The notes beneath the pieces were generated by a model, which saw only the letters and a list, made by a program, of their open reading frames with translations, was not told where the DNA came from and did not search any database. 64,000 nt of DNA, from assembly GCA_964437185.1 (NCBI GenBank), contig CAYTFU010000001.1:101022-165021 (forward strand), read 5' to 3'. Both the position numbers and the translations under genes were made by a program. Position 1 is the stretch's first letter. Each line of letters starts with the position of its first letter. This document shows, piece after piece, positions 1,083 to 25,733 of the stretch. The stretch comes from an uncultured Candidatus Saccharibacteria bacterium (GTDB lineage: Bacteria > Patescibacteriota > Minisyncoccia > Phycocordibacterales > UBA2100).

Positions 1083-1120
1083 CCCGCCAGCATATCATTC
1101 GGGCCCAAGTGCTCGCCATG

Positions 1121-1155
1121 ATAAGGTAAGAAAGCTATGGGGAATCCGTCTGAGC
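1121..1155. repeat. 35-bp perfect direct repeat, copy 1 (taaggtaagaaagctatggggaatccgtctgagca); the same sequence recurs at 1725-1759
   Basis: Exact 35/35 match to 1725-1759. Copy 2 carries the RBS and first 7 codons (MGNPSEQ) of the ECF sigma gene. Copy 1 opens a 22-codon ORF and sits upstream of hicB. Confidence 0.9.
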
Positions 1156-1217
1156 AGTTGAAAGCTCACCCTTCGTTGTATCGTTGTAATAAAGAGGCGT
1201 CGTGATATATTTTTCTT

Positions 1218-1466
1218 ATGAAGCAGACTTCGTATACATATAGTATTGTACTCACCCCTGCTGAAGAAGGTGGTTTTACGGTGACCGTACCGTCGCTTCC
1301 GGGCTGCATCACAGAAGGCGATTCCTTTGAAGAAGCAACGGCAAACGCGCGCGAGGCGATAGAACTAACTCTCGAATGTCTAAAGGAGCAAGGAGACCCC
1401 ATCCCACACGAACTCTCCCCGTCGATCACGAGCGCGGTAACCGTTGTGCACGCGCAGTATGCGTAA
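1218..1466 (+). CDS. hicB: HicB-family antitoxin (type II TA)
   Basis: 82 aa. Typical HicB N-terminal domain: YSIVLTPAEEGGFTVTVPSLPGCITEGDSFEEATANAREAIEL. It overlaps the start of the downstream hicA. Confidence 0.8.
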   Translation: MKQTSYTYSIVLTPAEEGGFTVTVPSLPGCITEGDSFEEATANAREAIELTLECLKEQGDPIPHELSPSITSAVTVVHAQYA

Positions 1467-1662
1467 GACGATTCGAGCGAAGGAACTGATAAAAATCTTG
1501 GAGGAGAAAGGATTCGTGTTTAAACGCCAATCGGGGAGCCATGCGCATTATCGACACCAGGACGGCCGATGGACGACGGTTCCGATGCACACCAAAGAAC
1601 TCAAACGTGCTACGTTGCACTCAATCCTCAGAGAAGTTGGGCTTACACTCGACGATCTCTAA
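1459..1662 (+). CDS. hicA: HicA-family mRNA interferase toxin (type II TA)
   Basis: The sequence MRKTIRAKELIKILEEKGFVFKRQSGSHAHYRHQDGRWTTVPMHTKELKRATLHSILREVGL matches the YcfA/HicA fold signature, including GSH..Y and VP.H...L. The ATG at 1459 overlaps the hicB stop by 8 nt. The track ORF begins at 1444. Confidence 0.8.
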   Translation: MRKTIRAKELIKILEEKGFVFKRQSGSHAHYRHQDGRWTTVPMHTKELKRATLHSILREVGLTLDDL

Positions 1663-1724
1663 CCGCGTTTGTCTTGAAATCAGTCCTCTGAACTCCCTGC
1701 ATGGGTCTAAGTAAGGAGCTGTGG

Positions 1725-1759
1725 TAAGGTAAGAAAGCTATGGGGAATCCGTCTGAGCA
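1725..1759. repeat. 35-bp direct repeat, copy 2; this is the native RBS and start of the sigma gene
   Basis: Identical to 1121-1155. Confidence 0.9.
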
Positions 1760-2273
1760 AAGGGAGGGAGAGCGAGCGTTTTTGGCGGCGTATGATGAAT
1801 TTGGGGATGCGATTTTTCGTTTTTTGACGATGAAGATCGCCGATCGAGAAGTAGCGAGAGACCTCACGCAAGAGACGTTTACACGTGCGTGGGACTTTTG
1901 CGTGGAGGGCGGAGAAATTCGAGAGTGGCGACCATTCTTGTATCGCACCGCCTACAATCTCGTCGTCGATACGTATCGCAAGAAAAAAGCGGTATCGCTC
2001 GATGCGCTTGTGGACGATGAAGGATTCTCGGTGACGGACGATAGCGTAGGTGAGAAGCAAACGGTCCAACACGCCGAGATGACAAGGGTGCGCGCGGCGA
2101 TTGATGAACTCGACGACACGTACCGAGACATTATGATTCTCCGGTACGTCGATGATCTGCCTCCCAAAATGATCGCCGAAGCAACGGGACTTTCCGAAAA
2201 TGTTGTTTCTGTCAGAATCCACCGCGGAGTCGAGAAACTTCGAATACTCCTCGGCCCCAAACAACACGTATGA
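1740..2273 (+). CDS. RNA polymerase sigma-70 factor, ECF subfamily
   Basis: 177 aa. Sigma-70 region 2 (DLTQETFTRAW, FLYRTAYNLVVD) and region 4 (YRDIMILRYVDDLPPKMIAEATGLSENVVSVRIHRGVEKLR). Confidence 0.9.
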   Translation: MGNPSEQREGERAFLAAYDEFGDAIFRFLTMKIADREVARDLTQETFTRAWDFCVEGGEIREWRPFLYRTAYNLVVDTYRKKKAVSLDALVDDEGFSVTDDSVGEKQTVQHAEMTRVRAAIDELDDTYRDIMILRYVDDLPPKMIAEATGLSENVVSVRIHRGVEKLRILLGPKQHV

Positions 2274-3322
2274 AATTCAAAGAATTTTTCAATAGAAGTA
2301 CCGACCGAGATATCGCGGAGCGTATGAAACGCGCGACGAAAATTTCAATGGGCGACGCTGTGCGTGATCGCATGCGTGCGCACCTTTCGGAATACACCAA
2401 AATGCGCCCGATCCGCGAAACGCGCGGCGCTCAGGCGCGAATTAATGGCTCATTCACTGCATTTTTTGCTCACATCCGCCCGATGCCCATCGTGGCCGCT
2501 CTTCTCATCATCTCAATCGGCAGCAGCACGGTGAGCGCCGAATCTTCTCTTCCTGGCGATCTCCTCTATCCAATAAAGGTGCACATAAATGAAGGGATAC
2601 GCTCTGCGATCACGCGGACTCCGGAAGCGCGCATTGAATGGGCCGTCGCGCGCGCGGAGCGCCGTCTCGAAGAGGCCGCTATTCTCGAACTCGTCGGCAA
2701 CCTCAGTGAAGCCACGCGCGCGGAGCTCGAAACCAACCTCGATGCGTACGAACAGTACGCACAGGAATCAGGTCAGGGGTACGCAGGGACAGGTGCACTT
2801 CCAGAGTTGGCGGAGAGCGTCGGAGCGATACGCATCGCGCGCCGCAACATCCTCGGCACGCTTGCCGAGGGGCGCAGAGCTGCCCATGTCACTCAGGCTG
2901 CGCAAGCAGAATCAGTAGGCGACGCGTCTACAGCAAACTTTACGATGGAAGCGCCCGAGGCGAGCATCATGAGCGCAAAGGCAGCTGCACCGATCCCCGA
3001 AGCTGCTCCCGCCCTCATGGCCGAAGCTATGGCGACCGATATCGACGATGAGGAGGGGCCCGAAGTCCGAGCGCGAGGGAATCGCACAGCCGCCAAAGTG
3101 CGTATTGGAGCAGCCGAGCGCTTCCTCGAAAAACAGAAAAATCTTGATGAGGGAACGCGGCAAGAAGCGCGCGAACTCCTCCAAGTCGCCCGCGAAAAGT
3201 TTGAGGAAGCCGACGAGAAGTCATCGCATGGCAAGCGCGAAGATGCAACGCGCGAATTTGAGCAGGCGCTCGAAAGCGCGATGCGAGTCGGTGCTGCCCT
3301 TTCTGAAGTGCGCGGAGAGTAG
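2270..3322 (+). CDS. putative anti-sigma factor or membrane protein cotranscribed with the ECF sigma
   Basis: ATGA overlap with the sigma stop. Single TM helix (PIVAALLIISIGSSTV), then a long coiled-coil/acidic extracytoplasmic region. The location fits a typical sigma/anti-sigma pair. Confidence 0.45.
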   Translation: MKFKEFFNRSTDRDIAERMKRATKISMGDAVRDRMRAHLSEYTKMRPIRETRGAQARINGSFTAFFAHIRPMPIVAALLIISIGSSTVSAESSLPGDLLYPIKVHINEGIRSAITRTPEARIEWAVARAERRLEEAAILELVGNLSEATRAELETNLDAYEQYAQESGQGYAGTGALPELAESVGAIRIARRNILGTLAEGRRAAHVTQAAQAESVGDASTANFTMEAPEASIMSAKAAAPIPEAAPALMAEAMATDIDDEEGPEVRARGNRTAAKVRIGAAERFLEKQKNLDEGTRQEARELLQVAREKFEEADEKSSHGKREDATREFEQALESAMRVGAALSEVRGE

Positions 3323-3328
3323 ACGCGC

Positions 3329-3997
3329 GTGGCGCAAACGAGTACACTGTCGCTCATGAATACAAAATCACACATGCGAACTACTAATGACGTCGGTACT
3401 GGCTCCCTCGGCGCTCGGGCGCAAATGTTGGTTCCCATGGTTATTGAAAAAACCTCCGCCGGCGAGCGCGCGTATGATATTTATTCGCGACTCCTCAAAG
3501 AGCGTATCGTTTTTTTGGGAGGACCGATTGACAGCGATGTTGCCAATCTCGTCGTCGCGCAATTTCTCTTTCTCGCGTCCGAAGACCCGAAAAAAGATAT
3601 CTCCTTCTACATCAACTCCCCTGGCGGTCACGTCTCAGCGGGCCTCGCCATCCTCGATACGATGAACCACATTCAGCCCAACGTCTCAACCGTCTGCGTC
3701 GGCATGGCGGCATCCATGGCCGCGATACTCCTCTCGGCAGGAGAAAAGGGCAAGCGCTTCGTACTCCCCAACGCAGAAGTCATGATCCACCAGCCGAGCG
3801 GAGGCGCCGAAGGCCAAGCGACCGATATCGACATCACGGCGAAGCAGATTCTCAAGCTCCGCGAGCGTCTCAATAGGATCCTTGCCAAAAATACGGGTCA
3901 AAAGCTTGAAAAAATCGCCACCGATGTAGAGCGTGATTTCTTCATGAGCGCCGACGAATCCGTCAAATACGGGGTGGTGGATAAGGTCTTGCACTAA
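3329..3997 (+). CDS. clpP: ATP-dependent Clp protease proteolytic subunit
   Basis: [30 protein letters not shown]...YINSPGG...MIHQPSGG: catalytic Ser/His context. The track ORF starts at GTG 3329. In-frame ATGs at 3356, 3374 and 3425 are alternative starts, with MLVPMVIE at 3425. Confidence 0.9.
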
Positions 3998-4197: not shown

Positions 4198-5727
4198 ATG
4201 TCATTAAAAACCATATTATTCCTTCTTGGCCTCGCAGGCCTCGTAGGCATTGCAATCGGATATTACCTCCGACTTATTATTTCGTTGGGAAAGCGCGGCT
4301 CGATGGAGCTCGAGATCCGCAAGATGATGCTCGACGCCGAAGAGCGCGCAAAAAAGATCGCTGAGGATGCTGATCGCGGGGCGAAGACCACGCTCGAACA
4401 CGCGACAGACGGGCTCAAAGAGCGCGAGAGAGATCTGAAGCAAACGGAAGAGCGCCTCGTTCGTAAAGAGGAACTGCTCGACAAGCGACAAACCAATCTC
4501 GACACTGAGCAAGAATCGCTCTCCAAAAAGGGTGAGGAATTGCTTGCTGCCAAGTCAAAAATCGAAGAAACTGCCCGCGCCCAGCAAGAAAAACTCGAGA
4601 AAATAGCCGGACTCACGACGGAAGAAGCCAAATCAGACCTCATAAAATCCGTAGAAAAACAGTACGAAAAAGACATAGAGAGCCGCATGCGCAAGCTTGA
4701 AATTTCCGGCAACGACCAACTCGAACATCGCGCAAAAGAGATACTCACGACGTCGGTTCACCGCCTCGGCAATTCGGTCGTTTCCGACGTTCTTGCGACC
4801 ACGATCTCTCTCCCTAATGAGGAAATTAAGGGCAAAATCATAGGTAAAGAGGGTCGCAACATTCGCGCCTTTGAGCGGGCAACGGGAGTCGACGTGATCG
4901 TTGACGATACGCCTGGCACTATTACGCTCTCCTCTTACGATCCGATTCGCAGGCAGATCGCTCGCATCGCGCTCGAAAATCTCATTCTCGACGGCCGTAT
5001 TCAACCGGCAAAGATCGAGGAGTCTGTTCAGAAAGCGGAGCAGGAGATCAACAACATCATCAAAAAGAAGGGCACCGAGGCTGCCTTTGAGGCGCGGGTC
5101 GCCAACCTCGATCCGAAGCTCCTCATGATCCTCGGCCGACTCTACTTCCGCTCAAGCTACGGCCAAAATGTGCTCGATCACTCCGTGGAAGTCGCGCATC
5201 TCGCGGGCATGCTCGCCGCAGAGCTTGGCGCGAATGAAGCGACCGCTCGCGCAGGCGCCCTCTTCCACGACATCGGCAAAGCCGTAGACCATGAAGTCCC
5301 GGGTACGCACGTGGAGATCGGACGACGCATATTGCAGAAATTCGGCGTCGGCGAAGATGTCGTGAAAGCGATGCAAGCGCACCACGAGGAATACCCTTAC
5401 GAAACCCCTGAGTCGATGATCGTACAGGTCGCCGACGCGATTTCTGGAGCTCGACCGGGCGCTCGTCGCGATTCTGTGGAGAATTACATCAAACGCCTTA
5501 CCGAACTCGAGGCGATTGCAAATGGAAATCCGGGCGTCGAAAAGAGTTATGCAATCGCTGCCGGCCGCGAAGTACGCGTCATCGTGAAGCCTACAGAGAT
5601 CACCGACCTTGAAGCGCGCAAGCTCGCTCGCGACATCGCCGACAAGATCGAAAAGGATATGCAATACCCCGGAGAAATTAAAATCTCTGTCATTCGCGAG
5701 ACTCGCGTCATCGAATACGCCAGATAA
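4198..5727 (+). CDS. rny: ribonuclease Y
   Basis: 509 aa. N-terminal TM anchor, coiled coil, KH domain (KIIGKEGRNIRAFERATGVDVIVDD) and HD domain (LFHDIGKAVDHE...HHEE). Confidence 0.9.
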   Translation: MSLKTILFLLGLAGLVGIAIGYYLRLIISLGKRGSMELEIRKMMLDAEERAKKIAEDADRGAKTTLEHATDGLKERERDLKQTEERLVRKEELLDKRQTNLDTEQESLSKKGEELLAAKSKIEETARAQQEKLEKIAGLTTEEAKSDLIKSVEKQYEKDIESRMRKLEISGNDQLEHRAKEILTTSVHRLGNSVVSDVLATTISLPNEEIKGKIIGKEGRNIRAFERATGVDVIVDDTPGTITLSSYDPIRRQIARIALENLILDGRIQPAKIEESVQKAEQEINNIIKKKGTEAAFEARVANLDPKLLMILGRLYFRSSYGQNVLDHSVEVAHLAGMLAAELGANEATARAGALFHDIGKAVDHEVPGTHVEIGRRILQKFGVGEDVVKAMQAHHEEYPYETPESMIVQVADAISGARPGARRDSVENYIKRLTELEAIANGNPGVEKSYAIAAGREVRVIVKPTEITDLEARKLARDIADKIEKDMQYPGEIKISVIRETRVIEYAR

Positions 5728-6338: not shown

Positions 6339-7016
6339 TTAAGGCGCGCCTAACACTAGGTCTGACCAAGCAAGTATTTTCCGTGCCAAGAACACACCGA
6401 ACCTCTTCTCGCCTAAACCATTGACAGAAAGATGTACTGTCCCGTGTGGGAGTTTGCCCGACTTAAGGGCTTTTTTGTCTTTTCGCCAATCAACGACTGT
6501 CTTTTGAAATTGGCTCATCGGAATGGTAGTCTTTTCCGACCAAAACTGCAAACTTTGTTCCTCGTCACTATCGGGATATATATGTAGTCGTATTTTCAAA
6601 TTATCCTTTCTGAGTCCCACAGCCTTTATAAACCATTTGATCATAAAATTTATTATCGCTGGATTCGAGTTCACAAACCTGATTTGCTGCGTCGACTTCG
6701 CACCCTCCCCTATATACAATCCGAGTCCGAGCATGAAAAGGTCACGGCGAGAAAAGGCACTGATATCCGTTTTTGCTTCTGATCGCGCACGTTGAAACGA
6801 TTCCCTCTTCAGTCTACTCTTTGCCTCACCCGAAGCAGCCCGAGCCTTTCCAATACGCTCGACCGTTTCGTCGTTGGGGGTATACGGGATGTCGGCTAGC
6901 CAAACTGCTAATGTGCCCTTTGATACTCTCGCCACCTTCGCAATGTAATTATACGAATGTCCCGCCTTTCGTAACTCGATTGCACTTATTCGCGCATGCA
7001 CTTTAGTCACCTCCAT
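6339..7016 (-). CDS. putative free-standing LAGLIDADG-like homing endonuclease with N-terminal HTH
   Basis: 225 aa. N-terminal HTH (LRKAGHSYNYIAKVARVSKGTLAVWL). LAGLIDADG-like block LFMLGLGLYIGEGAK followed by ...IINFMIKWF.... Locus GC is about 45 % against about 58 % in the flanks. No homing-endonuclease target rRNA or intron is nearby. Confidence 0.4.
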   Translation of the reverse strand: MEVTKVHARISAIELRKAGHSYNYIAKVARVSKGTLAVWLADIPYTPNDETVERIGKARAASGEAKSRLKRESFQRARSEAKTDISAFSRRDLFMLGLGLYIGEGAKSTQQIRFVNSNPAIINFMIKWFIKAVGLRKDNLKIRLHIYPDSDEEQSLQFWSEKTTIPMSQFQKTVVDWRKDKKALKSGKLPHGTVHLSVNGLGEKRFGVFLARKILAWSDLVLGAP

Positions 7017-7113: not shown

Positions 7114-8184
7114 ATGCATCCCCTCATTCGCTCCTACTTTGCCGTCCTTGGCGCAGTCGCGATATCTATACTCCTGTTTCTCCTTTTTCCCCAAACGGGC
7201 TTGGCTCCCACACAACCAGCTGAAGATCGCCTGATCATTGGATCTCCGGTGACTCATACGCAGTTAAAAGAATCGCCATCCCCTGCAGCAACGCCCGTAA
7301 GTGAGGCCGTCAGAATCGTCAATCCCTATCCTTTCTCACCTCAGACTACGGATGATCTCACGAATACTGCTCAAGCGTCGCTCGTCAACATTTTCTGCGT
7401 ATCAAACAACCCCGCATTTCGATCGAGCTCGGGATCGGGGGTACTTATCGATCCGCGAGGTGTCATCCTCACCAATGCGCACGTTGCTCAATACGTACTT
7501 CTTTCTTCGCTACCCGACCTGGGGATCGTATGTACGATTCGGACAGGATCTCCTGCAATCGCAAGGTGGGAAGCGCAGGTGCTCTATATCCCACCGATTT
7601 GGGTACGGGGCCACGCGCACGAGATCAACTCGTTCAAACCGGCAAGTAGCGGTGAACACGACTACGCCCTGCTCTTGATTACAAAATCGATCGACGACAC
7701 CCCGCCCACACCCTTTCCGTATCTACCGATCGACACTCGTGAGGCGATTGCCTTTCCCGAAGATGAAGTCGCGACGGCGAGTTATCCAGTGGAATTTGTC
7801 GGCGGGATAAACGCGCCATTTAATCTTCGTCCGGCAAGCTCAGTATCGACGGTGTCCAAGCTATACACATTCACGTCAAAGACGGCCGATATTCTCTCGC
7901 TCGGCGAGGTGCCACTCGCACAAAGCGGATCTTCAGGTGGACTCGTAATTAATACGTGGGGATTTCTCGTAGGCTTACTGACCGCAATGAGCGACGAAAC
8001 AGCCGCATCAGGACGTGATCTTCGGGCCCTCTCGTTGAGCTACATTGATCGCGATTTAAAGGTGCAGGCCGGGTCGTCTCTGTCCCAAATTCTCGCGAGT
8101 GACATGACGGCCAATATGCTCGACTTCAACACGAGCACCGCCCCCGCACTGCTCGCACTTTACACGAATATGGTCGGGTTATAG
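7114..8184 (+). CDS. secreted trypsin-like serine protease (S1 family, no PDZ domain)
   Basis: Signal/TM segment (AVLGAVAISILLFLLF). His motif GSGVLIDPRGVILTNAHV. Ser motif QSGSSGGLV. Confidence 0.7.
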   Translation: MHPLIRSYFAVLGAVAISILLFLLFPQTGLAPTQPAEDRLIIGSPVTHTQLKESPSPAATPVSEAVRIVNPYPFSPQTTDDLTNTAQASLVNIFCVSNNPAFRSSSGSGVLIDPRGVILTNAHVAQYVLLSSLPDLGIVCTIRTGSPAIARWEAQVLYIPPIWVRGHAHEINSFKPASSGEHDYALLLITKSIDDTPPTPFPYLPIDTREAIAFPEDEVATASYPVEFVGGINAPFNLRPASSVSTVSKLYTFTSKTADILSLGEVPLAQSGSSGGLVINTWGFLVGLLTAMSDETAASGRDLRALSLSYIDRDLKVQAGSSLSQILASDMTANMLDFNTSTAPALLALYTNMVGL

Positions 8185-8286
8185 ATTGAAAATCCGACCG
8201 TATCGTACCTCTGCGGAAATTGACAAAAAAAATCGCCCCCCTATAGTTCGTCGGGCTGAACAACTTGCTGGAAAGGAACCTTCCAA

Positions 8287-9135
8287 ATGCTCTTTACATA
8301 TACCGTAATCGTCACAATACTTTTGTCGGTGAGCGTACACGAACTTGGTCACGCCTACGCCATGCGTCAATGTGGGGTACGCATCGCAAAGATCGGATTG
8401 CTCGGAATCCCAGGATTGGGTACATTCCGTCTCCCAATAAGATCTCGCTTCTTTCTCGGGACTCATTGGTACGTGCACCCACTGCTCATCGGCGCATATG
8501 TCGAACCGAACACGGACGACATGGAAAAGTTAGTGCGGAAAGATGCGCTCTACGTCTACGGGATGGGACCATTAGCGAATGTTCTGTTTTCGCTCGTGGT
8601 TATGTTTGCTCTTGGGACGATGACCCTCACATTCGACGTTGCGGTGTTTGCTCCCGAAACCATTCAAAAGTGGGGTGCACCCGGCTTACTCATTGCACTG
8701 GGAATTGTCGTCGCAGCGACATGGTACTTTAGGCGGATACTGTGCCAACTTATGCTGCTACCCGTTGGTTGGCTTCTTGCGATCTTCATCGCATACTTGA
8801 CTTGGAAAAGTGGTCCGCAGATTTCGGGCATTAGCGACATCATTGGCGATATCCATCGCGCCCGGCCTGTAATGATGAAAGCCCTGCCCGCATCGGCACT
8901 CAACGAAATCACAATGGCCGTGAAGCTCGGCGCAGGATTTTCAGTCTTGCTTGGACTGGTAAACCTCCTACCTCTCGTACCACTCGATGGTGGGCACATG
9001 ACACGCCACCTCTTTCCATCGAGATGGCAGAGTGCGTATGAATACGCCTCCACGCCAATCTTCGCACTCCTGATGTTGCTTCAATTTGGCAAAGACGCGC
9101 TCAACTTGGGGCACTGGCTGTGGAGCCTGCTCTAG
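8287..9135 (+). CDS. site-2 protease family (M50) membrane metalloprotease
   Basis: HELGHA zinc motif in TM1. NLLPLVPLDGGHM motif. Multi-TM. Confidence 0.8.
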   Translation: MLFTYTVIVTILLSVSVHELGHAYAMRQCGVRIAKIGLLGIPGLGTFRLPIRSRFFLGTHWYVHPLLIGAYVEPNTDDMEKLVRKDALYVYGMGPLANVLFSLVVMFALGTMTLTFDVAVFAPETIQKWGAPGLLIALGIVVAATWYFRRILCQLMLLPVGWLLAIFIAYLTWKSGPQISGISDIIGDIHRARPVMMKALPASALNEITMAVKLGAGFSVLLGLVNLLPLVPLDGGHMTRHLFPSRWQSAYEYASTPIFALLMLLQFGKDALNLGHWLWSLL

Positions 9136-11724: not shown

Positions 11725-11749
11725 ATGTGCTCCCGCCAGGATTCGAACC
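11725..11749. repeat. 25-bp direct repeat of the tRNA-Arg 3' half (T-arm plus acceptor); att-like
   Basis: tgtgctcccgccaggattcgaacct is identical at 11725-11749 and 11876-11900, the latter inside the tRNA-Arg gene. Confidence 0.85.
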
Positions 11750-11877
11750 TTACAGGTTCAGTACACCTTTGCGGTTTTCTCACAGCTCCGCCGCTCGCAA
11801 ACATCGCAAAGGTCTTCGAATCACTGGTCGCACGCAAAGCAGTTTGCGTGCTCGGGAGCACACATGCTTCGCTTGTG

Positions 11878-11949
11878 TGCTCCCGCCAGGATTCGAACCT
11901 GGAACGACAGTTCCGAAGACTGTTGTGATATCCGTTTCACCACGGGAGC
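11878..11949 (-). tRNA. tRNA-Arg (anticodon TCG)
   Basis: Acceptor GCTCCCG/CGGGAGC. D-arm GTGA-AACGGATA-TCAC. Anticodon stem ACAGT/ACTGT, loop CTTCGGA. T-arm CCAGG-TTCGAAT-CCTGG. 72 nt, no CCA. Confidence 0.8.
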
Positions 11950-19283: not shown

Positions 19284-20282
19284 TCACGCCGCGGCACCCT
19301 CAGGCGCGCGCATTTTGCGGCGTGAGGAAAAATAGGCAAACGTAATAAATACGAGACCGATAAGCCCCGTGATCACCTCCGGCACGTGGATGAAAATCCC
19401 CACGAGCATCGCGAGTGCGAGCCCAAGAATGGCCCAATGTGCACCGTGTTCGAGGTAGGGGAGCGCGTCGAGCGTCTTTGCGCGAACGAGATAGACGGTA
19501 AAGGCTCGCACGAAAAGCGCGCCGATCCCCAAGCCGGCGATAATGACCGGCAGCGCGGAAGTAACCGCGAAGGCGCCGACAACGCCATCGAGCGAGAACG
19601 CTGAGTCGAGCACGTTGAGATAGATAAAGAGGGCCGCCCCAGCACTCGCCGCGTGTTCGCCAGCCTGCACCTCAAACGATTGGGCAATACCCTCGATCAC
19701 GATGAAGAGCACGACACCGATAAGGCCGGCGATGAGGAGAGTTGCCGCTTCGTGCGGCACGGCAAATGCGCACCCAAGGAGAATGACGAGCACGAGAGCG
19801 ATTTCGATTGCCTCGATGCCGCCCCACCGTGAGAGGTAGCGCTCCACAATATCGATCCAGTGCACTGTCTTTTTTTCATTAAAGAAATATTTGAGCGATA
19901 CGAGCAGCAAGAACGCGCTACCAAACGCGCCGATTGCAACGTGCGCATCTGCAAGCCGGTGGCCATACTCGGCAGCGTCAAAGAAGGCAAGCTGAGTTAC
20001 GAAGATAGGGGAAAGGCCGGCCGCGGCCGCGACGATAAAGATGGGAAGAACGAAACGCGTGCCAAACACCGCGACTGGGATGCCCCACACGAGGAAGCGC
20101 TTCTGCCAGAGCGGGTCCATGCGCTGGAGCACCTTCGCATTTACAACGGCGTTGTCGAAAGAGAGGGTGGTTTCCAAAATCGCCAGTAGCACTACCAGAA
20201 GCAGCGCCGTAAGCCCTCCCCAGGAGAACGCCCCCGCAAACGCGACGATGGATACGATGGCCGGAAAAATGAATACGCGCAT
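19284..20282 (-). CDS. TerC/DUF475-family integral membrane protein
   Basis: LSFDNAVVNA and FSLDGVVGAFAVT motifs. Multi-TM. Confidence 0.8.
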   Translation of the reverse strand: MRVFIFPAIVSIVAFAGAFSWGGLTALLLVVLLAILETTLSFDNAVVNAKVLQRMDPLWQKRFLVWGIPVAVFGTRFVLPIFIVAAAAGLSPIFVTQLAFFDAAEYGHRLADAHVAIGAFGSAFLLLVSLKYFFNEKKTVHWIDIVERYLSRWGGIEAIEIALVLVILLGCAFAVPHEAATLLIAGLIGVVLFIVIEGIAQSFEVQAGEHAASAGAALFIYLNVLDSAFSLDGVVGAFAVTSALPVIIAGLGIGALFVRAFTVYLVRAKTLDALPYLEHGAHWAILGLALAMLVGIFIHVPEVITGLIGLVFITFAYFSSRRKMRAPEGAAA

Positions 20283-20305
20283 AACAATGCGGGTATCCTA
20301 CCACA
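20228..20305. repeat. 78-bp direct repeat, copy 1: the native start and upstream region of the TerC-family gene
   Basis: About 92 % identical to 21536-21613. Includes the minus-strand ATG of the TerC gene at 20280-20282 and its first 18 codons. Confidence 0.9.
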
Positions 20306-20416: not shown

Positions 20417-21469
20417 CTATTCAACTAGGGTGATACTTCTAACAAACTGATTCGCAGCTTGTTTTTGAGAATCAGTCATGTAGGACATATCAATCATCAC
20501 ATCTGACTCGCTGTCACCGTTAGAGTCAATAAATAACACTGCGAACGGCCTGCCATTTAATTTCTCCCAGTTTCCATACCCGTCTCCCTCATTCCAGTCG
20601 TATGTGTCGTATATTCTTAAAACCCTAGCCTGGCCAGCAATTTCCACAGCCGAGGAAGAAATCTCAGCAATGGGAACTCCCGCATTCCATTCCCCAAAAT
20701 AAGCATCTGCGGATATATCGATGGTACCGTCACCATAGAAGATTTGTATATGCTCTGGTTCAAATGTTGATCGTGGCGGGTGGGGCCAGTCAAGTATCTT
20801 TACAATACTCACAGCATTCTCAGGTGGAATAAAACTTATACCTGCTTTTTCAAAAATAAACTTTTGATTTTTTGAAAAACGCTGAATGCTCTCTTTGTTT
20901 GCATCCTCAAAAGCAAAAGCGTCACTTATACCTAAAATCTCAGATGTGTTATTCTTTTCCCTTACTTTGGCAACAAAGAAGTATTTACTCTTTGTATCTA
21001 ACTCACATTCAAGTGCGGGCACGACGTACTTAACTTCCTCGAAAGCCACAACATTTGAAGCGACCTTACACTCAGAATCCTCGCTATTTAAATAAAGGTC
21101 AAAGACGCTGATGTTCGTATCCCTGCTTAGTGACCATCTAACAGGGAATGCAAGGTTCCGACTGAGGCGAGTATCTCCGTTCGGGTCGATAAAAACCAGA
21201 GGAGATACTGCTTTCTTTTCATTTTCCGGTGTTGGTGTATCAAGTGCTGCAAAGCCTTCCGTTCTTGCGTCAGATTCAACTTTAACTACTGAAATTCTCT
21301 CCACCCTAACAAAATTCTCAGGGGCAAATGAATACCAAACCCACCCACCAATAAGCGACAAAGTCACAAAAAGCGCCATCGCTAAATACTTTGGAGGCGG
21401 AGTTGCGGTGCCTCCAACACTTGCTGGTCTCTCGAGTGAGACTGACTCTCGAGCTTGCTCAGGCTCCAT
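20417..21469 (-). CDS. hypothetical secreted/membrane-anchored protein in a low-GC insert
   Basis: ATG at 21469 (MEPEQARES...). The track ORF starts at TTG 21490. Signal-anchor ALFVTLSLIGGWVWYSF. About 42 % GC against about 58 % in the flanks. No family recognised. Confidence 0.55.
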   Translation of the reverse strand: MEPEQARESVSLERPASVGGTATPPPKYLAMALFVTLSLIGGWVWYSFAPENFVRVERISVVKVESDARTEGFAALDTPTPENEKKAVSPLVFIDPNGDTRLSRNLAFPVRWSLSRDTNISVFDLYLNSEDSECKVASNVVAFEEVKYVVPALECELDTKSKYFFVAKVREKNNTSEILGISDAFAFEDANKESIQRFSKNQKFIFEKAGISFIPPENAVSIVKILDWPHPPRSTFEPEHIQIFYGDGTIDISADAYFGEWNAGVPIAEISSSAVEIAGQARVLRIYDTYDWNEGDGYGNWEKLNGRPFAVLFIDSNGDSESDVMIDMSYMTDSQKQAANQFVRSITLVE

Positions 21470-21535
21470 CGAATTTATGATACCACGCAAAGTTGAAGTT
21501 CGAAGGCGCTGTAGTCAGACCCCGCGGACCAAAGC

Positions 21536-21613
21536 ACGCCCCCGCAAACGCGACGATGGATACAATGGTCGGAAAAATAAATACCGGCATAACAATGCGG
21601 GTATCCTACCACA
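21536..21613. repeat. 78-bp direct repeat, copy 2, upstream of the inserted low-GC gene
   Basis: Carries a duplicated TerC start (MPVFIFPTIVSIVAFAGA...) that opens a roughly 43-codon leader ORF. Its TGA lies 8 nt past the ATG of the insert gene. Confidence 0.9.
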
Positions 21614-21682: not shown

Positions 21683-21925
21683 ATGTCACAAAAAGTGATC
21701 CGAATAGGTTCTTCAGCCGGGCTTACGATTTCTCCAGATATATTGGAGGCTCTCGGCATCCAGATAGGGGACGCTGTTGAGGTCTCGGCACACAGATCTG
21801 CACGAACACTCACGGTGAGACCCAAAGAAGAAACTGGAGAACAGGTGAATCCCGATGTAGTCGTGTGGACGAATGCATTCATCGACAAAAACCGAAAGCT
21901 TCTGATGCGACTTGCTGACAAGTAG
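21683..21925 (+). CDS. AbrB/MazE/SpoVT-fold antitoxin (Phd-like partner of Doc)
   Basis: 80 aa. Swapped-hairpin signature IRIGSSAGLTISPDILEALGIQIGDAVEV. Immediately upstream of the doc gene. Confidence 0.7.
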   Translation: MSQKVIRIGSSAGLTISPDILEALGIQIGDAVEVSAHRSARTLTVRPKEETGEQVNPDVVVWTNAFIDKNRKLLMRLADK

Positions 21926-21926
21926 C

Positions 21927-22325
21927 ATGAATTATCTTTCGGCAGCTGACATACTTGCTATCCACGACCGCGTTATCGAGGAGACGGGCGGCATGTTGGG
22001 TGTGCGCGAAGAAAACCTATTGCAATCTATCGCGCAACGCCCCAAGACCTCATTAGGGGGCATTGAACAATTTCCAGATATTTTCACGAAAGCAGCAGTG
22101 TACCTCGAATCCATCGCGACCTATCATGTCTTTCTCGACGGCAATAAACGCACCGCACTTTCCGCGGCGGCCGTGTTTCTGCGTCTAAATGAATATGAGA
22201 TGACACTTCCAATCACAGCGACGGAAGAATTCATGGTGGCAGCAGCGCAGAGGAAGTATTCACTCGAGCAAATCGCCGCCTGGCTCAAAACCCACTCAAA
22301 GCGAATTGCGAAAGGTAAATCCTGA
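21927..22325 (+). CDS. doc: death-on-curing (Doc/Fic-family) toxin
   Basis: Fic motif HVFLDGNKRTALSAA. ATG 1 nt after the antitoxin stop. The track ORF starts at TTG 21912. Confidence 0.85.
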   Translation: MNYLSAADILAIHDRVIEETGGMLGVREENLLQSIAQRPKTSLGGIEQFPDIFTKAAVYLESIATYHVFLDGNKRTALSAAAVFLRLNEYEMTLPITATEEFMVAAAQRKYSLEQIAAWLKTHSKRIAKGKS

Positions 22326-22353
22326 CGCAAGAACATTGCGACACACTTTTCCC

Positions 22354-22376
22354 ATTCCCGTGGGGTCAGACCCCAT
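22354..22376. repeat. palindromic 23-mer attcccgTGGGGTCaGACCCCAt, copy 1, with an extra GACCCCATGTC half-site repeat downstream
   Basis: Perfect 7-bp inverted arms around a single nt. The second copy is at 23371-23393. cagaccccatgtc is directly repeated at 22367-22379 and 22388-22400. Confidence 0.85.
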
Positions 22377-22678
22377 GTCCACATGTCCAGACCCCATGTC
22401 TCTCAACCAACGAATAAAACAGGACGCCATCTCTCTTGTTGAGCCGTCATTGCACAGTCCGCTGAAGGTAGAGGGGTTCTTTCGACACAAAATATTCCCC
22501 GACCTAGTCTTCCATACAAAGGCACACCCCTAACTTCACGCCATCGGCTAAAGTTAGTGGTGCATGTTTCTTGCGACCTCATCTCCCGTGGGATTTTACC
22601 CCGTGATCGTGCCATATTGACACACGATTCAATTGGGTGTTTATTCCTCGGAGAGCAACTTTTGAGGAGGACTTTGAC

Positions 22679-23218
22679 ATGCCTACGAACTGGACAATCG
22701 CTGACACTGCGAAGCTGAATGGATTTGATGCGGCCGCGTTCTGGGAGTGGCTGCGGACGGGATTGCGTGATTGGGACATCGACGAGTTACGGTGGCAAGC
22801 TTTTGCGCCCGTTGTGTACCGATTCGATCCATTCGACGATCCCGAAGATAGCATTGCAAGAATGTTTGAGGCACTTTCAGAAGACCGGCAAAGTGTCTTT
22901 TGTGAGGCACTTGCGTTCGGATTTTCTGCAGCAAACATCACCCCGGAAGCATTCGACTTTTTGCAGAACATTCTGGTTCTGCTGAAAAGGTCGGAGCCCG
23001 TGGAGGCAATGGTCGCCCGTCTGTGCGAATCCAACTACCTCGACGCAACTTCACATGAGGTTGCCGATCAATTGTTTGCAAGAGTATTCGCCGTGGAGGC
23101 GCTCTACACGCATCCGCGGTGGGAAGCGCTCTATGCTCGCCTTAAGGCGTCATCATACTTCAGGGAGACATACCGACCACGAATCGAAGAACGGATCGCA
23201 GCGGCTCAGCAGCGATGA
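22679..23218 (+). CDS. hypothetical protein (orphan)
   Basis: Strong SD GAGGAGG 8 nt upstream of the ATG at 22679. Acidic, Trp-rich, no known motif. Confidence 0.5.
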   Translation: MPTNWTIADTAKLNGFDAAAFWEWLRTGLRDWDIDELRWQAFAPVVYRFDPFDDPEDSIARMFEALSEDRQSVFCEALAFGFSAANITPEAFDFLQNILVLLKRSEPVEAMVARLCESNYLDATSHEVADQLFARVFAVEALYTHPRWEALYARLKASSYFRETYRPRIEERIAAAQQR

Positions 23219-23340: not shown

Positions 23341-23370
23341 TCTCAAACTCGGTTTGAGACCTAAAATCCG

Positions 23371-23393
23371 ATTCCCGTGGGGTCTGACCCCAT
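23371..23393. repeat. palindromic 23-mer attcccgTGGGGTCtGACCCCAt, copy 2
   Basis: 22/23 identical to copy 1. Preceded by the hairpin tctcaaac-tcg-gtttgaga at 23339-23360. Confidence 0.85.
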
Positions 23394-23555: not shown

Positions 23556-25733
23556 ATGGAAAAGAAAGTATATTCTCTCGAAATCGGGGGAAAGACGATG
23601 TCCGCTGAGTTCAACGATTGGGCGGATCAGACAAACGGATCGGTGTTGGTGCGCTACGGCAACAGCGCGGTACTCGCGACTGCCGTGATGGGCAAGGAAT
23701 CCGACAAAGATTATTTCCCACTCTCAGTGGAATACGAGGAGAAGTTTTATGCAGCGGGCGCAATTCTCGGCAGCCGCTTTATGCGCAGGGAAGGCCGGCC
23801 TTCGGATGAAGCCATCCTCTCAGGACGTATCGTGGATAGAACCATTCGCCCACTCTTTCCGAAAGGAATGAAGCGCGAAGTGCAAGTCATCATCACCGTC
23901 CTTTCTATTGAAGAGTACGACACCGACATTTTGGCGGTCAACGCGGCATCACTCGCGCTCGCCACATCCGACATTCCATGGAATGGTCCGGTTTCATCGG
24001 TGCGCATCGGAGTCGAAGAAGATAACGACGCCCTCATCGTCAACCCTACCTACAAGCAGCGTGAAGAAGAATTGCCACCGAAGGCGGTTCTCGACCTCAC
24101 AGCCTGTGGCAAAGACGGACTCATCAACATGATCGAGGTCGGCGCACGAGAGGTATCCGAAGCGATGCTCGAAAAGTCGCTCGCGCGTGCAAGTGAGGAA
24201 ATCGAGAAGATTCAGAAATGGCAAAAGATGATCGTCGCTGAGCGAGGGAAAACGAAGTGGGATTTCAAATCGCCTGAAGCGACAGCTGAAATGAAAGCGG
24301 CTTTTGCCGAAATTGTTGAGCCAAAGCTGAAGGCATCGGGAGGCAAATTGCCCAAACAGGAACTCGGCCCGATGAAATCCGAGTGGATGACATTCGCTAC
24401 CGAGAAACTCCCGGAGACCCCAAAGGGTCAGCTTGACGCATATTACGAAGAGCGTCTCGACGCATTCGTACACGACCTCGCGATCAATGAAGACAAACGC
24501 GTTGATGGCCGCGCGCTCGATCAAATCCGCCCACTCTTTGCGCAGGCTGGCGGCGTTTCTCCCGTTATTCACGGCACCGGCATCTTCTATCGCGGCGAAA
24601 CGCACGTACTCGCGGCGCTCACGCTCGGCGGCCCAGGCGACGCGCAACTCATCGACACCATCGAATTCCAGGACACGAAAAAGACCTTCATGCTCCACTA
24701 CAACTTCCCACCGTTCTCAGTAGGGGAGACAGGGCGCGTCGGAGGATTCAACCGACGTATGACAGGTCACGGTGCGCTCGCCGAAAAAGCATTGCGCGTC
24801 ATGATGCCGTCTAAGGACGTATTTCCGTACACGGTGCGTATCGTTTCCGAGTGTCTCGCATCCAACGGCTCTACCTCTATGGCCACGGTATGCGCAGGCA
24901 CGATTGCGCTCATGGACGCGGGAGTGCCGATTCAGCGCCCCGTCGCCGGAATCGCAATGGGCATGATGAGCGATTCGAAAGCGGGGAAGTACAAGGTGCT
25001 CACCGACATTCAGGGACCCGAAGATCACCACGGCGACATGGACTTTAAGGTCGCGGGCACGTCAGAGGGCGTGACCGCCGTACAAATGGACGTGAAAGTA
25101 GAAGGCGTACCGCTCAAAGTACTCACCGAGGCATTCGCGCAAGCAAAGAAAGCCCGCATGCAAATTCTCGACGTCATCACAAAAGAGATCGCATCACCAC
25201 GCGCGAGCATTTCTGAGCGCGCTCCGAAAATCCTCACGCTCGTCGTGAAGAAAGATCAAATCGGACTCGTGATTGGTCCCGGAGGAAAAATGATCAACGG
25301 CATCCGTGAGCGCACAGGCGTCGATGACATTACGATTGAGGAAGACGGCACCGTCTTCATCACCGGAAAGAATGGCTCGGCCGAAGAAGCATTTAAAGAG
25401 ATCAGTGATCTTACTCGCGAATATATGGTGGGCGATCGATTCGAAGGTGAAGTGGTGCGGATTATGGATTTCGGTGCGTTCGTGAAGATAGGTCCCAACA
25501 ACGACGGCCTCGTCCACGTCTCAGAAGTAGCGCCGTTCCGCATTGCGAAAATTACCGATGCCGTTCAGCTCGGCGACGTCGTACCCGTCGTCCTCAAAGA
25601 AATCGACGAGAAAGGACGGTATAATCTGTCCATCAAAGCCGCTGATCCCGAATGGGCCGCTCGCAAGGGTCTGAAGCCGGATCAAGGTGGCGGAGATTCA
25701 CATGGCGGAAGTCGACCACGGAGACATTTCTAA
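23556..25733 (+). CDS. pnp: polynucleotide phosphorylase
   Basis: 725 aa. Two RNase PH domains, KH (IGPGGKMINGIRERTG) and S1 (GDRFEGEVVRIMDFGAFV). Confidence 0.95.
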   Translation: MEKKVYSLEIGGKTMSAEFNDWADQTNGSVLVRYGNSAVLATAVMGKESDKDYFPLSVEYEEKFYAAGAILGSRFMRREGRPSDEAILSGRIVDRTIRPLFPKGMKREVQVIITVLSIEEYDTDILAVNAASLALATSDIPWNGPVSSVRIGVEEDNDALIVNPTYKQREEELPPKAVLDLTACGKDGLINMIEVGAREVSEAMLEKSLARASEEIEKIQKWQKMIVAERGKTKWDFKSPEATAEMKAAFAEIVEPKLKASGGKLPKQELGPMKSEWMTFATEKLPETPKGQLDAYYEERLDAFVHDLAINEDKRVDGRALDQIRPLFAQAGGVSPVIHGTGIFYRGETHVLAALTLGGPGDAQLIDTIEFQDTKKTFMLHYNFPPFSVGETGRVGGFNRRMTGHGALAEKALRVMMPSKDVFPYTVRIVSECLASNGSTSMATVCAGTIALMDAGVPIQRPVAGIAMGMMSDSKAGKYKVLTDIQGPEDHHGDMDFKVAGTSEGVTAVQMDVKVEGVPLKVLTEAFAQAKKARMQILDVITKEIASPRASISERAPKILTLVVKKDQIGLVIGPGGKMINGIRERTGVDDITIEEDGTVFITGKNGSAEEAFKEISDLTREYMVGDRFEGEVVRIMDFGAFVKIGPNNDGLVHVSEVAPFRIAKITDAVQLGDVVPVVLKEIDEKGRYNLSIKAADPEWAARKGLKPDQGGGDSHGGSRPRRHF

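Follow-up and report, generated by a model that had tools for sequence, protein, structure and literature searches.

As far as the available parts of the two accounts go, restriction–modification (R–M) units can enter chromosomes by insertion with long target duplication (Nobusato et al. 2000, Gene 259:99; Furuta, Abe & Kobayashi 2010, NAR 38:2428, PMC2853133). The accessible text of the later paper describes repeats that are longer than 30 bp, occur as a single copy at the empty site of a related genome and often overlap the end of a neighbouring gene, and its authors propose a life cycle in which the unit spreads via its repeats (PMC2853133). A 2013 review by the same group ascribes this mode of insertion to R–M systems only. 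In Microcystis aeruginosa, a ParE/ParD-like module by MaOC1 is fenced by identical 152-bp direct repeats (PMC7935541). Here we describe a hicBA toxin–antitoxin cassette that lies between two identical 35-nucleotide (nt) copies of the start of an extracytoplasmic function (ECF)-type sigma factor gene, in a 64-kb stretch of DNA from a candidate-phyla-radiation bacterium (the window; contig CAYTFU010000001.1, positions 101,022 to 165,021 of the forward strand).

Type II toxin–antitoxin modules are among the most laterally mobile of prokaryotic genes, yet they encode no mobility enzyme, and how these pairs reach ordinary chromosomal positions is largely unexplained. The locus that we describe offers a clean example of a filled and an empty site, in which an essential-looking regulatory gene is preserved by duplication of its start. 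Coordinates follow the numbering of the window, and features of the insert and its repeats are on the + strand unless marked otherwise. L-numbers denote metagenomic or Logan contigs that were used as relatives, and R stands for the flanking direct repeat. From the relatives of its sigma factor, the window is assigned to Candidatus Kaiserbacteria (Patescibacteria), which are candidate-phyla-radiation bacteria.

The repeat pair and the hicBA insert

The locus has the following parts.

1122–1156, + strand: repeat copy 1, an orphan copy of sigma positions −15 to +20
1137–1205, + strand: predicted 22-codon open reading frame (ORF), consisting of the duplicated sigma start (MGNPSEQ) and 15 new residues
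1157–1724, + strand: inserted segment, 568 bp, not at the empty site, with hicB and hicA as its only genes
1184–1211, + strand: promoter-like site, TTGTAA-16-TATATT with an upstream TG, borne by the cassette
1218–1466, + strand: hicB antitoxin gene, 82 amino acids (PF15919, E 8.6e-14, profile positions 1–57 of 123)
1459–1662, + strand: hicA toxin gene, 67 amino acids (PF07927, E 1.7e-20, full-length profile match)
1663–1724, + strand: right spacer of the cassette, homologous to the spacer of L028 (0/1000 shuffles)
1725–1759, + strand: repeat copy 2, with the functional translation-initiation region of sigma and its opening codons

The 35-mer TAAGGTAAGAAAGCTATGGGGAATCCGTCTGAGCA has exactly two copies within the 64-kb window over which copies were counted, and no further copy appears even when three mismatches are allowed; none of 100 dinucleotide-preserving shuffles gave a match. 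A perfect 35-bp pair had been proposed from the sequence alone at 1121–1155 and 1725–1759. The pair itself and its second position stand, and the first copy is shifted by one base, to 1122–1156. If one mismatch is tolerated (A/G at 1121/1724), the repeat extends to 38 nt (1119–1156 and 1722–1759; 37/38 identical). Beyond the repeat, the flanks of the two copies have no significant similarity on either side. A longer, diverged repeat was rejected for this dissimilarity, and a weak GGGyC..AAGT likeness was dropped. The sigma start codon lies within copy 2 (ATG at 1740). The original prediction had the repeat duplicate the first seven sigma codons: MGNPSEQ is indeed encoded by both copies, but the 35-mer holds six codons and only two of the three bases of codon seven. 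As had been proposed, a 22-codon ORF begins in copy 1; it has no family match and stops 12 nt upstream of the hicB ATG.

The repeat–cassette–repeat structure is real and is backed by five independent assemblies. Four MEGAHIT k141 assemblies from different samples have the identical structure, with unique sequence flanking both copies, and one of them represents a 99.57%-identical strain (23 substitutions in 5383 bases). In a fifth sample, the k=31 Logan contig L123 ends at 1151, after exactly 30 nt of copy 1, which is the point where a k=31 graph is bound to break if the repeat is 31 nt or longer. The structure might otherwise have been an assembly artefact, either a de Bruijn graph loop or a chimeric join at a shared k-mer, given that the source consists of metagenome assemblies and that the repeat length is within the range of small k values. 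This reading is effectively refuted, and we give it practically no chance: the four k141 assemblies span both copies independently, one of them from a distinct strain, L123 breaks exactly where a real repeat predicts, and the join between hicA and sigma is found independently in L028.

Between the copies lies the hicB–hicA pair with overlapping stop and start that had been read from the sequence; the overlap measures 8 nt (ATGCGTAA) and both genes match Pfam families. By its domains and its adjacent, co-oriented genes, the pair is a HicAB type II toxin–antitoxin system, with predicted toxicity and neutralization. HicA has the conserved Gly-Ser-His motif (GSH, residues 25–27 of the translation), the histidine of which we assume to have a functional role. 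Only the N-terminal HicB-like domain was found in the HicB profile match, with no C-terminal DNA-binding domain, and it is because this 82-residue protein lacks that domain that autoregulation by HicB is doubtful. HicB homologues of similarly short length were common in the protein search, and only distant HicB relatives turned up in viral contigs.

The promoter-like site ends 6 nt before the hicB ATG, with no Shine–Dalgarno sequence there, and the position of this putative promoter suggests that the hicB mRNA is leaderless or near-leaderless. A block, TGnTATATT-TTTCTTATG, is common to the window, L028 and L029; in L029, a HicB that is 73% identical is encoded at a different locus, adjoining rpsB, without flanking repeats. 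Because this block is shared with L028 and L029, the promoter, hicB and hicA probably form a core that occurs at differing places in Kaiserbacteria. Flanking repeats are not obligatory, as L029, L111 and L112/113 (HicB 63–73% identical) have the module at other loci without them. Placement of hicBA under the sigma promoter, as first proposed, is possible, but the cassette has its own candidate promoter directly before hicB, in a region that is partly conserved in L028 and L029. No terminator-like site was found between hicA and sigma, and therefore read-through from hicBA into sigma is possible. Two further promoter candidates were considered: an ECF-type GAAC-N16-GTC motif in the right spacer was discarded because it has the wrong spacing and is not conserved in L028, and a TGnTAAGGT ‘extended −10’ at the left edge of the repeat, present in only some relatives, is kept as no more than a hint.

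We found no terminal inverted repeats at the ends of the insert, and no mobility gene within it or in the stretch of called genes that reaches about 4 kb upstream and 6 kb downstream. A transposon, an insertion sequence or a miniature inverted-repeat transposable element can be set aside, as terminal inverted repeats and a transposase are lacking, the duplication is 35 bp long (compared with 2–15 bp) and the element occurs once in the window. The insert's GC content (50.2%, compared with 53.1 ± 3.6% for the window) is not unusual; base composition is thus uninformative on origin, and a foreign origin argued from it was rejected. Folding of both insert boundaries was no better than that of shuffled sequence (z = 0.81 and 1.39) and an Rfam scan returned tRNAs only, results on which an attC site or structured RNA at the boundaries was rejected.

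Empty and filled sites

Two Logan contigs, one without and one with the cassette, bear on how the insert arrived. In L027, the sigma factor is 88% identical to that of the window in amino acids (81% in DNA) and a single repeat copy is fused to the sigma gene; the first 30 nt of this copy are identical to the 35-mer of the window and two of the last five differ. The left flank in L027 (25–40 nt) aligns to the flank of copy 1 and not to that of copy 2, with an anchored alignment score of 13–17 against shuffle means of −6 to −8; 0–1 of 1000 shuffles reach this score, and 138 nt of left flank were available on the contig. Judged by its sequence, L027 is the empty site, with the same left flank, one repeat copy and then sigma, which is the arrangement that the original prediction would have in a close relative.

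In L028, hicB, hicA and a homologous right spacer (0/1000 shuffles) all stand directly before a sigma gene. The sigma factor of L028 is 78% identical to that of the window in amino acids, HicB 89% and HicA 82%; the contig begins 42 nt before hicB, and the left junction lies beyond it. By sigma identity, the empty L027 is therefore nearer to the window than the filled L028 (88% compared with 78%). The proposal of a recent insertion finds no support, in that form, in this comparison: the same cassette, with a homologous right junction, is present in the more distant L028, and therefore the association is either old or laterally spread. That the two repeat copies in the window are identical may come from the mechanism, through a crossover inside the repeat, and need not mean that the insertion is young.

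Silent sites offer a second comparison between the window and L028. Third positions are identical at 96 of 149 sites in hicBA and at 77 of 176 in sigma (Fisher p = 2e-4), and four-fold sites at 44/68 and 32/69, respectively (p = 0.04), so that hicBA is less diverged than sigma at silent sites. Along sigma, identity at silent sites between the two showed no gradient of the kind that a recombination tract would leave. The orthologous 35-mers differ at 7/35 positions between the window and L028, whereas the two copies in the window are identical to each other. On the simplest reading, lateral transfer would have brought the cassette to one and the same site in separate lineages, because the filled L028 is more distant than the empty L027 and hicBA has a lower silent divergence than sigma.

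Nine species-level relatives (sigma 61–81% identical in amino acids) keep sigma and anti-sigma, and seven of them also ClpP within the fetched sequence. None of the nine has hicBA upstream of sigma, and the upstream neighbour differs in each.

These data also bear on the possibility that the occupied state is ancestral and the event in the window lineage an old one, in which case L027 would have arisen by secondary, precise R × R deletion and the copies in the window would have been kept identical by gene conversion. Such a history would account for the cassette shared with the more distant L028; a precise R × R deletion would leave exactly the state of L027, and L011 (below) suggests that an orphan gene-end copy can outlast the loss of a cassette at the rny site. 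It would also call for many independent losses, as nine other species have no cassette. Moreover, the window and L028 differ at 7/35 positions of the 35-mer, so that drift would be expected in any orphan copy of great age, and the silent-site divergence of hicBA is below that of sigma. We consider an ancestral cassette unlikely.

Gene-end repeats at other loci

The same architecture occurs at a second site, the end of rny (the gene for RNase Y). Two contigs from other Kaiserbacteria, L007 and L010, have hicBA pairs that are unrelated to that of the window and lie directly after rny, each between the following repeats.

L010, 9050–9139 and 9906–9995: rny-end repeats, 90 nt, 83% identical
L007, 8858–8947 and 9441–9530: rny-end repeats, 90 nt, 74% identical

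In both contigs the repeat is the last 90 nt of rny, and the orphan copies share the codon position at which they start and end at the stop codon. The L010 copies have 15 differences, 14 at third positions and one at a first position, with zero amino-acid changes, and are identical over a central core of 32 nt. Of the 24 differences in L007, 17 are at third positions. Because the differences are mostly or only at third positions, one copy of each pair appears to have evolved as a working rny end in another lineage; neutral decay inside a single genome cannot have produced copies that differ in this way. In at least one case (L010, with synonymous-only differences), the substitution pattern marks a repeat copy as foreign. 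Downstream of the orphan copy in L007, the sequence is homologous to the spacer between rny and HU in the window, and owing to this homology the rny–HU junction of the window can be read as the empty site for the L007 cassette. In L011 (~9042–9123), an orphan fragment that encodes VIRETRVIEYAR* follows the rny stop codon at a distance of 42 nt, without an intervening cassette; it may be the scar of a lost insertion.

The rny repeats help to weigh a true long target duplication that arose de novo in the lineage of the window. In such an event, the process that has been proposed for R–M units, two nicks or breaks 35–38 bp apart at the sigma start are filled in around a captured hicBA fragment, and both copies stem from the resident sequence. 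Much at the sigma locus suits such an event: the copies are 35/35 identical (37/38 when extended), their outer flanks are unrelated, the empty site has a single copy and there are no mobility genes. The locus also has features by which such insertions are recognized in the available part of the account by Furuta et al. (2010, PMC2853133), namely a repeat longer than 30 bp, an empty site and an insert of less than 20 kb without transposase, integrase or phage genes. However, the same cassette and right junction occur in the distant L028 and not in the closer L027, and an independent repeat of the event is unlikely; hicBA is younger than sigma at silent sites; and rny copies that combine synonymous differences with a fixed boundary cannot come from a staggered cut. 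We regard a de novo duplication as a possibility that is less probable than not by a good way. The original prediction also allowed for a cassette that had carried the 5′ end of the target with it, and this alternative fits the wider evidence (the rny copies and the silent-site contrast) better than a simple staggered-cut duplication does.

To gauge how widespread such repeats are, metagenomes were scanned with the HicB of the window, which yielded 80 loci from other, higher-GC bacteria, 55 of them with at least 200 nt on both sides. Direct repeats (30–210 nt, at cassette-size spacing) bracket 10 of these 55 testable hicB(A) loci (~18%). For 450-nt segments picked at random from 257 kb of control sequence the share is 1.3%; the resulting p value of ~3e-9 is only indicative, as the control was drawn from different genomes. 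In the simple cases that were checked (L065, L045/L040 and L110), the 3′ end of an adjoining gene forms the repeat. L073 and L072 have more complex repeat arrangements. In L057 and in the candidate-phyla-radiation contigs L005 and L115–117, hairpin-like intergenic repeats lie between successive toxin–antitoxin cassettes.

Some of these contigs have repeats in more than two copies. In L045 (same organism as L040), three copies (2843–2908, 3560–3616 and 4422–4476) correspond to the 3′ end of a minus-strand gene for a 298-residue protein, presumably crotonase-like as judged by eye. The first interval between them holds a hicBA pair and the next another set of small ORFs, an arrangement that resembles serial insertion at one gene end in a high-GC bacterium. 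In L005, a non-coding repeat occurs three times (6657–6727, 8082–8252 and 8948–9112; 76–92% identical, no Rfam match) directly after the anti-sigma gene, and ClpP is missing from its usual place. From their translations, we take the genes between these repeats to be RelB-like and phosphoribosyltransferase-like, followed by a VapC/VapB-like pair. In L115 (1089–1159, 1772–1854 and 2323–2370) and also in L116 and L117, a hairpin-containing repeat, GCGCCACAGTTGGCGCC, is followed by AAGGAGG; in L115, which is from the same sample series, the repeat separates hicB, a PIN-domain gene and a gene for an 87-residue protein, like a cassette array without a recombinase.

The window itself has a second gene-start duplication, with different cargo.

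20225–20305, − strand: 81-nt repeat, functional copy, spanning positions −23 to +58 in the gene (19284–20282) for a TerC/YkoY-type membrane protein
21533–21613, − strand: 81-nt repeat, orphan copy, 93% identical, at a start-to-start spacing of 1308
20417–21490, − strand: inserted ORF between the 81-nt copies, 357 amino acids, no family match, GC 43.1%, GC at third codon positions 38.8%

Adjoining the orphan 81-nt copy, at 21683–22325, an ORF of 80 codons overlaps one of 137 codons; by eye, we take the two products to be an AbrB/SpoVT-type antitoxin and a Fic/Doc-type toxin. Further along, a 27-nt GC-rich hairpin-like repeat, TCCCATTCCCGTGGGGTCAGACCCCAT (22350–22376 and 23367–23393; 93% identical), brackets an ORF for 193 amino acids (22637–23218), upstream of one for 725 amino acids at 23556. 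Elsewhere in the window there is a perfect 25-nt direct repeat (11726–11750 and 11876–11900), the latter copy of which overlaps the 3′ end of a tRNA-Arg gene (11877–11949, − strand). At the other copy, 150 nt away, no tRNA was called; the pair may be an att-like duplication of a tRNA end.

A model for propagation of the cassette

The data show a cassette inserted where a relative has an empty site, duplication of its target, the lack of a recombinase in cis, recurrence and, in the parallel cases, foreign repeat copies. We hypothesize that the cassette propagates by homology-dependent recombination, with R as a portable homology arm, and not by a transposase-type staggered cut, and we put the chances of this at about even. 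The first R–cassette–R structure would have formed by some illegitimate event. From then on, the orphan R could serve as a portable homology arm that matches any genome with the conserved gene. By one route, R × R recombination would pop out a circle, which would enter a naive genome by a single crossover in R. By another, linear DNA from a relative would recombine through one crossover in R and a second in the adjacent conserved gene. Either route would rebuild R–cassette–R at the same site.

Such a crossover would require a stretch of perfect identity, and it is for this reason that a perfect 35-nt block would be expected whatever the age of the insertion. Lengths of 32–35 nt are close to the minimum for RecA-type recombination. 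The geometry of the repeats permits excision, as had been described from the sequence, and deletion by R × R recombination would be easy; it would be selected against by the toxicity of HicA after the loss of HicB (post-segregational killing). Addiction that opposes deletion in this way would explain why such structures persist around toxin–antitoxin pairs. Propagation through R would also account for the reuse of one site, for orphan copies with fixed boundaries, for copies that differ only synonymously and for the perfect cores of 32–35 nt.

Site-specific recombination could explain some of the same facts. The 35-mer would then contain an att core, and the cassette would be a 603-bp miniature integrative element that depends on a tyrosine or serine recombinase encoded elsewhere and acting in trans, comparable to cis-mobilizable or Xer-dependent elements. 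An enzyme of this kind would explain why the same site is reused across lineages and why the 90-nt boundary is fixed in L007 and L010 despite low copy identity (an 11-nt run in L007), and replacement of a gene end by an element-borne copy is typical of integrases. Nevertheless, neither the insert nor the called genes within ~4 kb upstream and 6 kb downstream include an integrase, dyad symmetry is absent from the 35-mer and repeat lengths vary from 30 to 210 nt. The targets (the 5′ ends of sigma and the TerC-type gene, the 3′ end of rny, and the 3′ ends of pdxT-like and crotonase genes) are unrelated, and one enzyme with one site therefore cannot account for all of them. We think that a site-specific enzyme is improbable, with roughly one chance in eight left to it in our judgement.

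Several observations weigh against propagation through R as a homology arm. The silent-site contrast comes from short genes, and differing codon constraints could contribute to it. The k=31 Logan contig L028 passes through its repeat unbroken and may lack a second identical copy. At 35 nt, the repeat is barely long enough for RecA-type recombination, and the identity of the two copies in the window would be explained equally well, for these 35 nt, by a recent de novo duplication. The longest identical run in L007 is 11 nt, a better fit to a site-specific enzyme or an old event, and the arms of the L010 copies could not be assigned to donor or recipient with other species as proxies. Approximately 80% of the surveyed hicBA loci have no flanking repeat. 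Finally, the excised circle is a postulated intermediate only, and the model presupposes R–cassette–R, the first event lying outside its account.

The homology-arm model could extend beyond hicBA. Toxin–antitoxin cassettes and some accessory genes may have a general, recombinase-free form of mobility, in which a copy of the end of a conserved host gene acts as the arm, RecA inserts DNA acquired from a relative into any genome with that gene irrespective of the sequence beyond it, the repeats are regenerated and addiction blocks deletion. We offer this generalization tentatively, as a possibility that we lean against. If it is true, the ~18% of hicBA loci that are bracketed by repeats across phyla, together with orphan scars such as that in L011, are footprints of an insertion cycle.

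The target operon and its neighbours

The target site lies at the head of a conserved gene cluster.

1–1082, − strand: left-neighbour ORFan, lineage-specific, 480 amino acids from a start at 958 or 521 from 1082; it runs off the window
1083–1121, + strand: native sequence to the left of the target site, with homology to the left flank in the empty L027
1740–2273, + strand: ECF-type sigma factor, 177 amino acids (TIGR02937, 72.3 bits compared with a cut-off of 42.9; Sigma70_r2 and r4_2)
2270–3322, + strand: putative anti-sigma factor (DUF5667), overlapping the sigma stop codon
3329–3997, + strand: ClpP, in conserved order after anti-sigma
4198–5727, + strand: RNase Y (rny), in conserved order after ClpP

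From its domains, with regions 2 and 4 only, and from its gene order, the target is a predicted group IV sigma/anti-sigma operon. The order of sigma followed by anti-sigma is conserved in 17 relatives, with ClpP next in ten within the fetched sequence. The genes around the insert comprise the ORFan, GNAT, TrmB, sigma, anti-sigma and ClpP. The ORFan has no Pfam domain, and a search for its homologues at E ≤ 1e-10 among 5.8 billion proteins returned nothing beyond the same organism and added no left junctions.

Alignment between the DNA of the relatives and that of the window begins only near the left edge of the 35-mer. Because of this, and because the left neighbour is an ORFan, the 5′ boundary of sigma appears to be a junction between conserved and variable parts of the genome. 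Within the aligned part, GTAAGA at −11 to −6 (1729–1734 in the window) and the ATG are invariant among the relatives. The invariant GTAAGA is neither a Shine–Dalgarno sequence nor a good −10 hexamer, and the sequence upstream of it is unalignable. One Kaiserbacteria sigma homologue, P0001 (250 amino acids), has an internal tandem duplication of ~50 residues, with EFGDAIFRFL...REWRPF present twice, which is either a real in-gene event or an assembly artefact.

With hicBA in the leader of an ECF stress operon, toxin expression could, speculatively, be coupled to envelope stress. The wider interest of the locus is that its architecture recurs around hicBA in unrelated bacteria, at the 5′ or the 3′ ends of genes and with a foreign gene-end copy in at least one case. 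It turns the idea of hitch-hiking by toxin–antitoxin genes into a specific, testable mechanism, and it extends the concept of long target duplication from R–M units to classical toxin–antitoxin pairs and to candidate-phyla-radiation genomes, the mobile elements of which are poorly known.

Comparison with known systems

HicAB type II systems were reportedly described by Makarova, Grishin and Koonin in 2006 and by Jorgensen and colleagues in 2009. The cassette resembles them in its HicA toxin domain, its HicB N-terminal domain and its small, overlapping and co-oriented genes. It differs from Escherichia coli hicAB in having the antitoxin gene first, the order seen in 49 of the 51 paired loci of the survey, and from HicAB systems in its HicB of 82 amino acids without a C-terminal DNA-binding domain.

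Our literature search found no account of gene-end duplications flanking toxin–antitoxin cassettes, or of such structures in Patescibacteria; the single report that it returned concerns the ParDE-like module of Microcystis. That module is also a toxin–antitoxin pair between direct repeats beside a host gene. However, its repeats are intergenic and contain inverted repeats, and neither an empty site nor a mechanism was analysed there (PMC7935541). They are closer to the hairpin-type repeats of L057, L005 and L115–117 than to a gene-end duplication.

Integrative elements, which are bounded by attL and attR at the ends of tRNA or protein genes and include integrase-less, cis-mobilizable forms, share with our cases the repeats at gene ends, a target that is kept intact by one copy and, in the rny cases, a foreign copy. 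The cassette described here differs in having no integrase, a size of ~0.6 kb, many unrelated gene ends as targets and no dyad-symmetric core. Integron cassettes and attC arrays are likewise small, lack a recombinase of their own, are bounded by repeats and are sometimes arrayed, as in L045, L005 and L115–117. In contrast to these, the repeat at the sigma locus is a coding gene start, has no attC folding signal and has no intI in view nearby, and the cassette has its own promoter-like site.

The closest likeness is to the long target duplications of R–M units. Within what the available text of that work covers, both involve a small addiction unit without transposase or integrase, direct repeats of more than 30 bp and an empty site with a single copy. 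Synonymous-only differences between copies, which mark a foreign copy in the rny cases, are not a feature described for R–M units in that text (PMC2853133). The cargo here is a hicBA type II toxin–antitoxin pair, which is missing the DNA-breakage property invoked for R–M units, and the host is a candidate-phyla-radiation bacterium. The insertion at the sigma locus is the same kind of event as R–M long target duplication, with a different class of addiction module.

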